Positions 58,245-63,738 of a DNA stretch of 64,000 bases are shown in pieces; position 1 is the stretch's first letter, and every line of letters begins with the position of its first letter. The notes under the pieces are model-generated. The model was not told the DNA's origin, searched no databases, and worked only from the letters and a program-made list of their open reading frames with translations. Both the position numbers and the translations under genes were made by a program. This DNA comes from an uncultured Eubacteriales bacterium (GTDB lineage: Bacteria > Bacillota > Clostridia > Peptostreptococcales > Anaerovoracaceae): NCBI GenBank assembly GCA_902776725.1, contig CACYQX010000002.1, positions 34,400-98,399 on the forward strand, given 5' to 3'.

Positions 58245-60068
58245 ATGGGAAAGCAGATGGAACCAAACAAAGACAAAAATGAACTTAATATTGAGGCGCC
58301 CAATATCCCTATTCCTGCCTGCATCGTCAACGAGGACGGCAAGATAGAGAGCGCCAACGAACACATAGAAAAAGTTTTCCCCTTCGGCGGCGTAGAGGAG
58401 CAGGATTTCTTTGCTCTTTCCGGCGTCAAGTTTAAGATGCTCAAGTCTATCGCGGGAGCAAGCGCAGACGACGAAGAGAAAGAAAAAGACGCCGATAAAG
58501 AATCCACACCGGAAGAAATAATCATAGAAAGAAACAGCCGGAGGTTCTCGATAACGGCAAAGGCTCTCGAAAACGGTAAGCTCTTAGTCTTCTTCTACGA
58601 CGTAACATCATATGAAGAGATAAGAGACAGATATGACAGAGAGCAGATTTGCGTCTGCAGAATCAACGTCGACAACTACGATCAATTTACAAATGCCGTT
58701 TCTTCGGAAACGGGGATGGCGGTTTCGACGGAGCTCAATAAGATAATCAGAAAATGGTCGGCGGAAATCGGCGGAGCGATCGACAAGATCAAAGAAACGC
58801 AGTTCGTAATCCACTTCCAAAAAGCAAACCTGGAGGAGCTCACCGCAGGAAAGTTCCAAATTCTCGATGAGGTGAGAGCGATAGAAACCGGAATCGACTT
58901 TCCGCTTTCGCTCAGCATCGGAATCGGCGTAGAAGGAAAGGATATTTCCGAGACCGCGGAGTTTGCTGCTGCGGCTCTCGACCTCGCGCTCGGACGTGGC
59001 GGCGATCAGGCCGTAATCAAAAACCAAAACAGAATTCAGTACTACGGCGGAAAGACTCAGTCCGTCGAAAAGAGCAACAAAGGAAAATCCCGCATCGTAG
59101 GACATGCAATCAAGAAACTCATAGAGCAATCGAACAGAGTTTTCATAATGGGACATCAGCACGCGGATATGGACGCGTTCGGATCCGCGATGGGAATCTA
59201 CAGAATTTGTCTCACCTGCGGAACGGAAGCCTTCATAGTGATAGACGAAATTCCGGAGAACATAAAAGCATTCTACGAGCAGGTTCGCGCAGCGGAAAAC
59301 TACAATATGATCGGAACCGAGCAGGCGATGAGCATGATAGAAAAAGACACGCTCGTCGTTGTCCTCGATACGCATAGACCGAGCTATCTCGAGGCACCGG
59401 AGCTTCTTGAAAAAACCGATCAGATTGTTGTCATAGACCATCACAGAAGAGCAGAGGACAATATCGAAAATCCTACGCTCTCGTATATAGAGACCTATGC
59501 ATCTTCGACGGCGGAGCTCGTAACGGAAATGCTGCAATACGTTCTCAACAGAAAGACGCTCGTAAGACTCGAAGCAGAAGCTTTGCTCGCGGGTATGACC
59601 ATCGACACAAATCGATTTGCGGTAAAGACAGGTGCGAGAACATTTGAAGCGGCGGCGTGGCTAAGACGCTCAGGAGCGGACACGACGGAAATCAAACGCT
59701 ACTTCCAGATGGAAAAGGATGCCTTCCACGTTAGGGCGGAGGCTCTTGCGGGAGCTGAGATTCACGAAAGCGGAATCGCAACGGCTTTGACCAAGGGTGG
59801 CGGCGCGGATGTTCAGGTAATCAACGCACAGGTCGCGGACGAACTTTTAAATATAAAGGGTATCAAGGCGAGCATTGTCGCGGGCGTAAACCACAAGGGA
59901 ATAACCTGCGTGAGTGCAAGATCTCTCGGAGATATGAACGTGCAACTCCTACTCGAAAAATTCGGAGGCGGAGGACATCTCACGGTTGCGGGCGCACAGG
60001 TAGAGGACGCGCCGGAAGAAGCGCTCGAAAAAATACTTAAAGCAGCAGAAGAAATGGAAAGAGAATAA
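58245..60068 (+). CDS. gdpP: cyclic-di-AMP phosphodiesterase GdpP (PAS, degenerate GGDEF, DHH/DHHA1) lacking N-terminal TM helices
   Basis: ALGRGGDQ, MGHQHADMDAFGS, VIDHHRR, SARS and GGGGH motifs; upstream of rplI. Confidence 0.92.
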   Translation: MGKQMEPNKDKNELNIEAPNIPIPACIVNEDGKIESANEHIEKVFPFGGVEEQDFFALSGVKFKMLKSIAGASADDEEKEKDADKESTPEEIIIERNSRRFSITAKALENGKLLVFFYDVTSYEEIRDRYDREQICVCRINVDNYDQFTNAVSSETGMAVSTELNKIIRKWSAEIGGAIDKIKETQFVIHFQKANLEELTAGKFQILDEVRAIETGIDFPLSLSIGIGVEGKDISETAEFAAAALDLALGRGGDQAVIKNQNRIQYYGGKTQSVEKSNKGKSRIVGHAIKKLIEQSNRVFIMGHQHADMDAFGSAMGIYRICLTCGTEAFIVIDEIPENIKAFYEQVRAAENYNMIGTEQAMSMIEKDTLVVVLDTHRPSYLEAPELLEKTDQIVVIDHHRRAEDNIENPTLSYIETYASSTAELVTEMLQYVLNRKTLVRLEAEALLAGMTIDTNRFAVKTGARTFEAAAWLRRSGADTTEIKRYFQMEKDAFHVRAEALAGAEIHESGIATALTKGGGADVQVINAQVADELLNIKGIKASIVAGVNHKGITCVSARSLGDMNVQLLLEKFGGGGHLTVAGAQVEDAPEEALEKILKAAEEMERE

Positions 60069-60069
60069 A

Positions 60070-60516
60070 ATGTTAGTATTACTTAAACAAGATGTAAAAG
60101 GATCCGGCAAAGCCGGCGACATAGTCAAGGTGAGCGACGGTTATGCTCGCAATATGCTTCTCCCAAAAGGACTCGCGGTAGAAGCGACGGAGGGAAATAT
60201 CCGCGCGGCCGAAAAACAAAAAGAGCGCCAGGCGCAGAAGGCTGCAGAGGATAGAGCTGCGGCAGAGGCCCTCGCGGAAAGCATCAAAGAAAAATCCATC
60301 GAGATAAAGACCAAGGCGGGAGAAGGCGGAAAACTCTTTGGTGCAATAACATCCAAAGACATTTCGGAAGAGCTTCAGAAGCAACTAGGTCTCGAGATAG
60401 ACAAAAAGAAAATCGAGCTCGAGTCTCCGATCAAAAGTCTCGGAACATATACCGCGGTTTTGAAGCTTTATTCCGAAGTCAAAGGCGAACTAAAGGTTTC
60501 CGTAGTAGAAGAATAA
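60070..60516 (+). CDS. rplI: 50S ribosomal protein L9
   Basis: DVKGSGKAGDIVKVSDGYARN and GKLFGAIT motifs. Confidence 0.98.
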   Translation: MLVLLKQDVKGSGKAGDIVKVSDGYARNMLLPKGLAVEATEGNIRAAEKQKERQAQKAAEDRAAAEALAESIKEKSIEIKTKAGEGGKLFGAITSKDISEELQKQLGLEIDKKKIELESPIKSLGTYTAVLKLYSEVKGELKVSVVEE

Positions 60517-60557: not shown

Positions 60558-61883
60558 ATGCCAGAGAGAATTCCTCCGCACAGCAAAGAAGCCGAACAGG
60601 CGGTGCTCGGTGCAGCGCTATTAAATAAAGATGCACTTTCCGACGTAATAGAAATAGTTAAGCCGGAAGACTTTTATGACGCTGCGCATAAAGAAATATA
60701 TTCGGCGATACTTGACCTCTTCCAGAGCAATGTAAGAGTCGACATTATTACCGTGAGCGAAGAACTCAAGAAGCGCGGAAGCCTCGAACTCGCGGGCGGC
60801 AGAGCTTATGTTGCTTGGCTCCCGGACAATGTTCCGTCGGCGCTGAATGCAGCGGGCTATGCAAACATAGTCGCAAAGAAATCCGATCTCAGAGCTTTGA
60901 TTTCTGCGGCAGATGATATTAGAGACAGAAGTTACAGAGAGGGCGACGAGTCGTCTACAATCCTCGATAAAGCCGAGCAGAGAATTTTTGAAATCGCACA
61001 GAAGCGTCAAGGGAGAGACTATACGCACATCAAAGACGTAATGAGAGATTCGCTCGACCTAATTGACAAGGCCGCAAGAAGCGAAGGAACGCTTACCGGA
61101 GTTTCCACCGGATTCTCGCAGCTCGACAAAATTACTCGAGGACTTCAGAAGTCAAACCTCATAATCGTTGCGGCGAGACCTGCGATGGGTAAGAGTGCCT
61201 TTGCTCTAAATATCGCATTGAACGCAGCAAAGAAATCCGACGCGTCTGTTCTCATCTTCAACCTGGAAATGTCCAAAGAAGAAATCGGAAACAGACTTCT
61301 CGCAATGGAAGCGAATGTCGAGATGGAAAGAATCCTTGAGGGAAAAACGCTTACTCAGGATGACTGGAGCGCAATCGGCGAAGCAACCAATCGCATGGGC
61401 AAGATGAATATAACGATAGACGACACCCCGAACATAAGTATCCTCGAAATGAAGAACAAATGCCGTCGCATGAAGGCGGAATACGGACTAGACCTCGTGG
61501 TTCTCGACTATTTGCAGCTCATGGATTCCGGAAGCAAGGTAGAAAACCGTCAGCAGGAGATAAGCAAATTCTCGAGAGGACTCAAGCTTCTGGCAAAGGA
61601 AATGGAATGTCCGGTTATAGTTCTTTCGCAGCTCAACCGTGGACCGGACCTGAGAGCGGACGACCACAGACCGAGAATGGCAGATCTTCGTGAGTCGGGT
61701 TCGATCGAGCAGGATGCGGACATCGTAATGTTCCTCTATCGAGACGACTACTACAACAAAGAAGAAAGTCCGATACCGGGCGTTTGCGAAATACATATAG
61801 CAAAGCATCGTAACGGACAGACCGGAAAGATAGACCTCGCTTGGGTTGAGCGCTACACAAGGTTCAACGACATCGCATATTAA
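60558..61883 (+). CDS. dnaB: replicative DNA helicase (DnaB; DnaC in Bacillus nomenclature)
   Basis: PPHSKEAEQAVLG, AARPAMGKS, DYLQL, LSQLNR, DLRESGSIEQDAD and AKHRNG motifs. Confidence 0.98.
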   Translation: MPERIPPHSKEAEQAVLGAALLNKDALSDVIEIVKPEDFYDAAHKEIYSAILDLFQSNVRVDIITVSEELKKRGSLELAGGRAYVAWLPDNVPSALNAAGYANIVAKKSDLRALISAADDIRDRSYREGDESSTILDKAEQRIFEIAQKRQGRDYTHIKDVMRDSLDLIDKAARSEGTLTGVSTGFSQLDKITRGLQKSNLIIVAARPAMGKSAFALNIALNAAKKSDASVLIFNLEMSKEEIGNRLLAMEANVEMERILEGKTLTQDDWSAIGEATNRMGKMNITIDDTPNISILEMKNKCRRMKAEYGLDLVVLDYLQLMDSGSKVENRQQEISKFSRGLKLLAKEMECPVIVLSQLNRGPDLRADDHRPRMADLRESGSIEQDADIVMFLYRDDYYNKEESPIPGVCEIHIAKHRNGQTGKIDLAWVERYTRFNDIAY

Positions 61884-61924: not shown

Positions 61925-63208
61925 ATGAATTTTATAAGACCAAAGGTGTCAGATCTCAATATGGCGGATCTGACCGTCGAAAACATTTTCATAAACGAGT
62001 ATATGCCGGAGGCTGACGGAGATTTTGTCAAAGTCTATCTTTTGGCGCGACTCTATGCGGAAACCGACAGAAGCATTTCCGACATAGAGATGGCCAAGCA
62101 GCTAGGCATCAGCAAGGACAGAATCCTTGAGGCGTGGAACTACTGGGAAGAGTGGGGCGCAATCAAGAAGCACTACCTCGGCGGTGACGGACGTCTCGAT
62201 TTTGCCGTGGAGTTTGTCAATCTAAAAGAAATGCTTTACGGAGGAGAATCGGATGAACCGCTTCTGATAGAAACCGATCCCGAAATCAAAGTGAGACCGG
62301 TCTTTGGAAACGAAGAAATTAACTCCCTAATGGAGCAGATAGAAAAAACTTTTGGAAGAACGCTTTCGCCGACAGATCTTCAGTCGATCATCAATTGGAT
62401 CGAAGAATACAAGGCTACGCCGGAAGTGATTCTGAAGGCCGCAGATTATTGTGTGGCAAAAAACAAGATGAGCTTCCGCTATATGGGTTCACTCATAGAA
62501 GGTTGGGTTGCACAGGGATTAAACACCGCCGACAAGATCGACGACTATCTGGAGGAGTTCGACCAAAAGTTTTCGAGATATAAGAGAGTAATGCGCGCGC
62601 TCGGTTATTCCAAAGAGGCGTCGGAAGAGGAGCGCAGAATCATGGACACATGGTTCGACACTCTCGGTTTCAATATGGACAAAGTTCTCGAGGCGTGTTC
62701 CAAGAGTGCAGGTATCAACAATCCTTTCCTATACGTCAACGGCGTTTTGAAGAATTGGAAGAAGGATGCGGCTCAGGATAACAGAGATGTAAACGACAAG
62801 AAGCCGGTTTCCAATTCCGTGCTCAAGGATTATTATAATTTCCTGAGAGAAAAAGCGGAAAGAGAAGCCAAGGAGAGAAGAGATAAAATCTACAGTGAGA
62901 TTCCGAAGATAAAAGAAATCGACGAGCAGAACAAGATCATCGGAACGCAGCTTGCAAAAGCATATTTGAGCGGAGATACCGAAGAGGGCGGAAGACTAAA
63001 GGCCGAACTCGAAAGGTTAAACGAAGACAGAGCATTCTATCTTGCGGAGCACGACTACGATATGGATTATACAGATCCAAAGTTTGCATGCACGGAATGT
63101 AACGACACGGGAATTGCGGAGATGGGGGGACCCTGTCCTGTTTGCAGAGAGCAAAGAAGGATGGAGGCAGAGATATGGCAAAGCGAAAGAGAAATAAAAG
63201 AGACATGA
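61925..63208 (+). CDS. DnaD/DnaB_2-domain protein with a fused C-terminal coiled-coil and Cys4 Zn module
   Basis: VENIFINEYMP.A.GDFVKVYL winged helix; two DnaB_2 repeats (YMGSLIEGW, YVNGVLKNW); C-terminal CTECNDTG...CPVC. Confidence 0.85.
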   Translation: MNFIRPKVSDLNMADLTVENIFINEYMPEADGDFVKVYLLARLYAETDRSISDIEMAKQLGISKDRILEAWNYWEEWGAIKKHYLGGDGRLDFAVEFVNLKEMLYGGESDEPLLIETDPEIKVRPVFGNEEINSLMEQIEKTFGRTLSPTDLQSIINWIEEYKATPEVILKAADYCVAKNKMSFRYMGSLIEGWVAQGLNTADKIDDYLEEFDQKFSRYKRVMRALGYSKEASEEERRIMDTWFDTLGFNMDKVLEACSKSAGINNPFLYVNGVLKNWKKDAAQDNRDVNDKKPVSNSVLKDYYNFLREKAEREAKERRDKIYSEIPKIKEIDEQNKIIGTQLAKAYLSGDTEEGGRLKAELERLNEDRAFYLAEHDYDMDYTDPKFACTECNDTGIAEMGGPCPVCREQRRMEAEIWQSEREIKET

Positions 63209-63738
63209 GCGCAGGCCGCATCGCCATGATAGCTATCGTGGTGGGCCTTCTTATCGGAATCGCTTTGGTGGCAAAGAATATAATCACTCTTTCGCTAGAG
63301 AAGCGTGCGCTTTTACAACAGAATAGTGAGCTCACGGATAAACGCGACGAACTTGCAGCGGAACTTGAGAACGTAAACGACCTCGACTATATAGAGGAGC
63401 AGGCCAGAAAGCTTCTCCACATGATTAAGCCGGGGGAGATTCTTTATATTCTTAACGGAGGGCATCCAAAGGACGAGAACGGAAACCTCGATATCGAACT
63501 TCCGACTCAGCCAAATGTGACAAACCAAGAAGAGACATCCGAAGAGACATCCGAAGAAACATCCGAAGAAGAAAGCACAGAAACCGAGGCAGTAGAAAAT
63601 TCCGAGGAGGAGACGACAGAAGAGTCCGCGGAAGAGCAATACGCGGAAGAGTATTACGAAGAAGAAACATCGGAAGAGAGCTCGGAGGTTTACGAGGAAT
63701 CCACGGGAGACGAAGACAATGAAGGCTCCGACGGATAA
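63175..63738 (+). CDS. septum formation initiator FtsB/DivIC family protein with a long acidic tail
   Basis: Basic N-terminus, TM helix, coiled coil and YIEEQARKLL.M.KPGE; EETS repeats in the tail; ATG 63175 after GGAGG. Confidence 0.85.
   Translation: MAKRKRNKRDMSAGRIAMIAIVVGLLIGIALVAKNIITLSLEKRALLQQNSELTDKRDELAAELENVNDLDYIEEQARKLLHMIKPGEILYILNGGHPKDENGNLDIELPTQPNVTNQEETSEETSEETSEEESTETEAVENSEEETTEESAEEQYAEEYYEEETSEESSEVYEESTGDEDNEGSDG

Follow-up and report, generated by a model that had tools for sequence, protein, structure and literature searches.

A DnaD/DnaB-type co-loader fused to the N-terminal domain of a helicase loader, without the loader ATPase, in Anaerovoracaceae

The fused gene and its neighbours

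The window, a stretch of 64,000 nucleotides from an uncultured member of the Anaerovoracaceae, contains directly behind the replicative helicase gene and on the same strand an open reading frame in which a co-loader of the DnaD/DnaB type continues into the N-terminal domain of a helicase loader (Table 1). The original prediction had read from the letters a gene placed behind the helicase gene, a winged helix followed by two DnaB_2 repeats, an in-frame continuation with a stop some 20 residues past a cysteine motif, an overlap with ftsB and the lack of a Walker motif downstream, and all of this is borne out by the coordinates, by the Pfam and TIGR01446 matches and by the predicted model.

Table 1. 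Features of the locus in window coordinates
Feature	Position	Strand	Basis or remark
dnaA	47366..48721	-	451 aa; likely recruiter of the fusion protein, as inferred from B. subtilis (PMC13326638)
gdpP-like phosphodiesterase gene and rplI, the usual genes preceding the helicase gene	58245..60516	+	domain matches
Replicative helicase gene	60558..61883	+	41 bases upstream of the fusion; Walker A intact
Fused gene, DnaD/DnaB-type co-loader plus loader N-terminal domain, without ATPase	61925..63208	+	427 aa, single frame
Winged-helix N-terminal domain (DDBH1), aa 13-105	61961..62239	+	secondary structure of the predicted model
Two DnaB_2 (DDBH2) repeats, aa 136-208 and about 220-284	62330..62776	+	PF07261 twice, TIGR01446
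Fusion junction, short linker	62777..62812	+	replaces the 56-74 aa conserved tail of unfused co-loaders
Loader N-terminal domain	62813..63145	+	NF005304 positions 8-130, invariant columns, predicted model
Last helix and stop	63146..63208	+	AAA+ domain begins here in full-length loaders (alignment with 14 separate loaders)
DivIC/FtsB-like gene	63175..63738	+	PF04977, E 1e-14; ATG at 63175

The DivIC/FtsB-like gene overlaps the 3' end of the fusion by 34 bases, is the next gene in only 4 of 85 loci, and is a variable neighbour that lies outside the loading system. Its product carries a long, repetitive, glutamate-rich C-terminal tail, of which 12 bases are missing in a related strain, and the orthologue in the closed genome G010 has just 106 residues. 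The dnaA gene is found about 13 kb away from the fusion gene.

The predicted model of the 427-residue protein has a mean pLDDT of 85. Its N-terminal domain can be aligned with unfused DnaD-like proteins and yields weak Foldseek matches to residues 1-300 of Geobacillus DnaB (5wtn, prob 0.92, E 0.13). Pfam DnaB_2 is matched twice (E 3e-28), and each repeat is closed by a YxxxIxxxW-type motif (Y186-W194 and Y270-W278, in which L and V take the place of the I), of which Y186, W194 and Y270 are invariant across 58 aligned rows. The modelled helix that follows the linker begins at 62813 and the residues YNFL at 62834, the final cysteine ends at 63145, and 20 residues remain after it. Neither the protein nor any of the three plus-strand frames between 62801 and 63997 contains a Walker A motif, and the DciA profile PF05258 is unmatched in the protein. 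Judged by domain content, the fusion protein is a member of the CD3653-type co-loader family with its tail replaced and belongs neither to the loader ATPase family nor to DciA.

Residues 299-420, the appended module, match positions 8-130 of the 330 positions of NCBIfam NF005304/PRK06835 (E 3.8e-20; 72 bits, the cut-off being 215), which upholds the predicted homology to the N-terminal domain of clostridial loaders. Among 103 distinct fusions P327, C389, C392, D394, T395, G396, C404 and C407 are invariant, and the four cysteines are likewise invariant in all 65 rows of an alignment of fused and separate proteins. All 103 fusions end 7-24 residues beyond the last cysteine, whereas 14 separate loaders run on into the ATPase domain; in four fusions GxxxxGK[TS] occurs by chance, within the linker or within a helix. 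In the predicted model of the module (pLDDT 96.8) three long helices are followed by a cysteine knuckle (C389, C392, C404, C407), for which zinc binding is predicted, and by a final helix. The median dN/dS is 0.062 for the module and 0.033 for the DnaD part, as calculated from 16 usable of 26 disjoint pairs (ten were dropped as their synonymous sites were saturated), and the module is under purifying selection. Among solved and viral structures the model has no clear counterpart, with a best Z of 7.9, to helical bundles, and Foldseek E-values above 0.2; in the Atlas only unnamed clusters match, comparison of the helical model with the solved N-terminal domain of DnaI yields many tied matches, and a sequence search against PDB chains gave no match. 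Such a lack of a structural match is no proof of a new fold.

Spread and origin of the fusion

Could the reading frame be the remnant of a decaying pseudogene or the product of an assembly join? A contig of another study covers positions 62230-63414 with zero differing letters and a contig of a third study covers the entire fusion gene without an indel, such that both junctions, at about 62800 and about 63150, are bridged by independent work and an assembly artefact is ruled out. The identical protein is recorded on 36 contigs, the source possibly among them; the window's own genome is 85% complete. A frameshift interrupts the module in genome G359 and a contig end cuts the gene in G255, but in a sample of 120 Anaerovoracaceae genomes, each at least 95% complete, the gene is present in all 120 and runs in a single frame through the module in 118, closed genomes and named isolates included. 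With the module evolving at a dN/dS of 0.06 in addition, the idea of a pseudogene or an assembly join is refuted and deserves practically no credence. The G359 frameshift (L201, G359:C8:33228-34447) lies near a G-rich run, with conserved residues kept in both halves, and may be an assembly error or a recent break. Two RNA runs gave zero coverage of the fusion gene, which has no bearing either way.

Relatives keep the fusion. Beyond the 118 family genomes it is found in six of six genomes of a second, sister family (f8), so that the predicted joining of co-loader and loader N-terminal domain holds lineage-wide. In a scan of species genomes, in which the best 80 of 137 loci were considered, both parts lie in one open reading frame at all 80, on the same strand as the helicase gene and directly after it at 68 and after a purA-like gene at ten. 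Fusions are present in Emergencia timonensis, Anaerovorax odorimutans, Sinanaerobacter chloroacetimidivorans and Zhenpiania hominis as well as on a complete Ihubacter chromosome, and databases label the proteins merely 'DnaD domain protein'. Since all fused genomes are kin, these counts represent one event and not many. In a quick tree of the DnaD part, built from 35 of 109 fusions and 14 unfused rows, all fusions fall on one side of a branch and the 14 unfused rows on the other (SH-aLRT 99), and the sequences may descend from a single fusion.

Of 301 genomes surveyed in the class, 287 contain the module; several genomes of family f47 and of genus g255 are without a match. Among the 150 of 291 class-wide matches listed, 143 lie in separate frames of 320-382 residues, and therefore the two-gene state is likely the ancestral one; the others are five family fusions and two frameshifted loaders. 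A triple fusion that retains the ATPase was found neither among proteins of 749-2135 residues, which is a weak test, nor in the best 120 of 335 near-length matches, nor in the best 150 of 4155 module matches, of which 57 hold the module C-terminally without a Walker A motif and 46 N-terminally with one, the remaining 47 being nearly all short.

The orientation of the gene differs between the lineages. In at least 11 unfused genomes the co-loader gene is placed on the opposite strand, facing the helicase operon, an arrangement in which purA follows the helicase gene, and the same facing arrangement occurs in four of four f8 genomes tested. Since the fused genes of f8 retain the orientation seen in unfused genomes, the fusion likely preceded the inversion.

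Loader ATPase, DciA and the co-loader tail

The original prediction left it open whether the ATPase was lost or moved. When a full loader is defined as an NF005304 match above the curated cut-off, with six candidates scored per genome, none of 72 family genomes and none of six sister-family genomes contains one, as compared to 215 of 222 other genomes in a set of 301 genomes of the order. The best loader E-values of the 72 family genomes, the six f8 genomes and the window's own genome are all weaker than 1e-36 and far below the cut-off. A first genome set gave the same picture, with a loader in 0 of 25 family genomes and in 15 of 16 others, the one exception carrying the fusion. Of the seven loader-less genomes among the 222, one has the gene cut by a contig end, two (G186 included) score just below the cut-off, and the remaining four have no match to the DnaD-like gene either and likely represent assembly gaps. 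These four, G088, G127, G270 and G280, are 90-99% complete and also lack a match to the loader N-terminal domain; G127 is in this state at 99% completeness and in 30 contigs.

Searches with IstB/DnaI-family profiles recovered only a DnaA-sized match and short P-loop matches in the closed genomes G010, G021 and G266 and likewise in the near-closed G216 (nine contigs). DciA (PF05258) is found in 0 of 121 family genomes, with seven of 14 controls positive, and in none of the 41 genomes of the first set. On these profile searches the loader ATPase is absent from the genomes and not relocated, which settles the alternative in favour of loss. Bacterial species with neither dnaC/I nor dciA are on record, 49 of 1,426 in one survey, and are mostly small or host-associated (PMC5109545).

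An ATPase acting in trans has nevertheless to be considered. The module might hold the helicase while the AAA+ domain of DnaA, an unrelated core ATPase or a mobile IstB-like protein performs the ATPase step, and candidates for the last are at hand, since IstB-like genes of 283-289 residues are present in the window's own genome, in G005 and in G188 (283-287 residues in the latter two) and IS21-type IstB genes in G031, G246 and G284; moreover, loaders have repeatedly been replaced by phage genes (PMC5109545, PMC11087808). The distribution of these IstB-like genes is patchy, however, and they adjoin integrase, KilA-N, DUF6291 or RepA_N genes, that of G005 sitting after a RepA_N gene; they are lacking from the closed and near-closed genomes named above, and the fusions have no tail on which an ATPase domain would dock (see below). 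On these IstB/DnaI-family searches an ATPase step in trans is improbable. The IstB-like gene of the window's own genome (C3:7355-8224) was rejected as a loader, as it lies in an integrase/KilA-N region of 36-41% G+C as compared to 46.5% and does not match the loader N-terminal domain. The surrounding low-GC island (L186, G000:C3:5000-14500) encodes an integrase, KilA-N, DUF6577, a DUF6291 replication-type gene, the IstB-like ATPase and a small gene resembling a mobilisation accessory protein.

A separate observation concerns family f50, with genomes of 1.2-1.5 Mb and about 25% G+C, in three of which one additional base disrupts the gene of the full-length loader (L231:3844-4853 in G542:C30; L232, G561:C9:5442-6453; L234, G599:C9:32927-33932). 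In G542 and G561 the break falls at the same place within the Walker A motif, in G599 at a different place, and in all three a leucine codon is followed by CGG and TAA, whereupon the protein resumes in the +1 frame; if CGG and the next base are read as one step, a loader of 336 residues results. The loader genes of G580 and G520, also f50, are intact. This sequence pattern suggests +1 recoding at CGG in the f50 lineage, on which nothing was found in the literature searched.

The fusions also differ from their unfused relatives in what they lost at the junction. All 14 unfused DnaD-like proteins have a conserved tail beyond the last YxxxIxxxW motif, and a profile of this tail scores 28-55 bits on each of the 14 when that protein is left out. 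With a threshold of E<0.01 this profile has a match in 0 of 109 fusions, and the window's own genome is likewise devoid of one. The DnaB protein of B. subtilis uses its C-terminal tail to bind the AAA+ domain of DnaI (PMC13326638). If the clostridial tail contacts the loader ATPase domain as in Bacillus, to which it is alike in position alone, then both sides of the contact would be gone in the fused lineage and a peptide bond would stand in their place.

A possible tether between DnaA and the helicase

How might the fusion protein act? Probably the covalent tether replaces the ATPase-based hand-over, the module being the part that would bind the helicase. The oligomeric DnaD/DnaB part would be recruited by DnaA to the origin, or by PriA to stalled forks, and the appended domain would grip the replicative helicase where the strand has been opened. 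Assembly of the ring on this strand would be driven by the binding of ATP to the helicase itself, and primase would activate the loaded helicase as in C. difficile. Historically, the tail of the ancestral co-loader would have held the loader through its ATPase domain, one deletion-fusion of the adjacent genes together with the loss of the ATPase would have removed both contact sides, leaving the peptide bond instead, and a later inversion in one of the two families would have put the gene behind the helicase gene. The term 'ATP-independent', used originally for this route, was overstated, as DnaA and the helicase retain their ATP sites and only the loader ATPase is absent. By analogy with B. 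subtilis DnaB the fusion protein would be tetrameric and bind domain I of DnaA (PMC13326638). Such a tetramer would offer four modules as compared to six in the DnaI6-helicase6 complex, which counts against the tether.

Several observations on related loaders bear on this mechanism. Walker A mutants of the C. difficile loader still bind the helicase, the ATP requirement lying in the helicase, and ATPase-dead loaders allow 2.5-fold more unwinding in vitro, from which the authors concluded that the helicase can be delivered without loader ATP, which instead 'locks' it (PMC5204125). B. subtilis DnaI and E. coli DnaC both bind the helicase through their N-terminal domain (PMC1636449, PMC2673437, PMC8213410), and the isolated helicase-binding domain of DnaC stimulates unwinding almost to the level of the full-length protein (PMC8213410). 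For C. difficile a complex with the replicative helicase is documented for full-length CD3654 only, and since this loader resembles DnaI mainly within the AAA+ domain (PMC5204125), a helicase-binding role of the clostridial N-terminal domain is an analogy. Hence, of the original designation of the module as the helicase-binding half of a loader, the homology to the loader N-terminal domain stands, and the binding is carried over from DnaC and DnaI. When a complex of the module and two C-terminal domains of the helicase was predicted, without folded controls, the score was 0.01 and the mark 0.32, which has no bearing either way.

In C. difficile the helicase can load itself, and primase activates it in the absence of the loader, so that the module might have been retained for a different function. 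The helicase would then load itself together with primase, and the appended domain would serve contacts to DnaA, PriA, single-stranded DNA or primase or the stability of the oligomer. The wild-type C. difficile loader even inhibits the helicase (PMC5204125), dnaG and priA are present in five of five genomes tested, and the species mentioned above that have neither dnaC/I nor dciA show that such a state exists. It is, however, the N-terminal domain that binds the helicase in the two model loaders, the invariant residues of the module are the same as in full loaders, which fits an unchanged partner, and the loader gene is reported to be essential in C. difficile (PMC5204125), so that self-loading with another use of the module appears unlikely. 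In the closed genome G021, dnaG is found in two frames (G021:C1:609479-610686).

The helicase itself offers a further hint for the tether. Columns that separate the helicases of fused and unfused lineages show an enrichment in the linker helices (158-172) and the docking helices (266-281). The mean divergence is 0.455 in these two windows, a level reached by 0.2% of random window pairs, against 0.227, and the ratio of 2.0 for the fused/unfused split compares with 1.3-1.6 for three control splits; it should be noted that three positions were already known when the windows were chosen and that one evolutionary event is compared. The helix windows were placed partly by E. coli numbering. As these helices are contacted by loaders (PMC8216460), the enrichment is a weak hint in support of the tether, and shared ancestry alone could explain the diagnostic positions. 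The separating positions include C410 (31 of 31 against G, A or T), R82, D170, D271/D278, N165 and P407, and no large helicase insertion is found in fused genomes (31 versus 19 sequences). Taken as a whole, it is a tentative and somewhat doubtful proposal that the two sister families have a loading system of their own, with one essential polypeptide reaching from DnaA to the helicase, neither loader ATPase nor DciA, and docking helices adapted to it.

The closest known counterpart is the pair CD3653/CD3654 of C. difficile, with the same DDBH1-DDBH2-DDBH2 order and the same loader N-terminal domain in adjacent genes near the helicase gene (PMC5204125). The fusion differs from it in being one polypeptide instead of two and in that the AAA+ domain is absent from the gene and none was found in the genome; compared with CD3653 it is devoid of the co-loader tail, and in the window's family it is encoded behind the helicase gene on the same strand. 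In the DnaB-DnaI system of B. subtilis, too, a co-loader scaffold connects DnaA with the part of the loader that binds the helicase (PMC13326638), and the fusion would act like such a pair drawn together into a single chain. The connection in B. subtilis, however, is non-covalent and made through the ATPase domain of DnaI, whereas the fusion has a peptide bond instead and no ATPase. The zinc site of DnaI is formed by C67, C70 and H84 (PMC1636449); in the module this role would fall to four cysteines, placed where long helices end. DciA and the P protein of phage lambda are also loaders without an AAA+ domain, and both target the linker and docking helices of the helicase (PMC8216460); in contrast to DciA, the fusion descends from an AAA+ loader that had replaced DciA and would be a return to ATPase-free loading by truncation. 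E. coli DnaC reduced to its N-terminal, helicase-binding part still stimulates the helicase in vitro (PMC8213410), but this fragment is engineered and has a different N-terminal domain, whereas the fusion shows a truncation that arose in nature, became fixed and is tethered to the co-loader. That a helicase can be loaded without a loader ATPase is already known; the new part would be a natural, fixed truncation-fusion of an AAA+ loader. The literature searched, to which most subscription papers and most bioRxiv supplements did not belong, contains no description of the fusion, and neither Mogibacterium nor Anaerovorax nor Family XIII is entered in the species table of PMC5109545.

The purpose of the ATPase of DnaC/DnaI-type loaders is a long-running question, since ATPase-dead or truncated loaders can deliver the helicase or stimulate it in vitro (PMC5204125, PMC8213410) and yet the genes are essential. 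A whole lineage appears to have run the loader truncation in nature and kept it, and isolates of Anaerovorax, Sinanaerobacter and Emergencia provide a culturable test case. The fusion indicates which domain of clostridial loaders matters and leads to the prediction that the conserved tail of CD3653-type proteins binds the ATPase domain of the loader. Surveys of DnaC/I versus DciA would count the fused lineage as loader-less. If the tether holds true, these families would demonstrate in nature that in DnaC/DnaI-type loaders the AAA+ domain serves as a regulatory lock and as a linker and does not drive loading.
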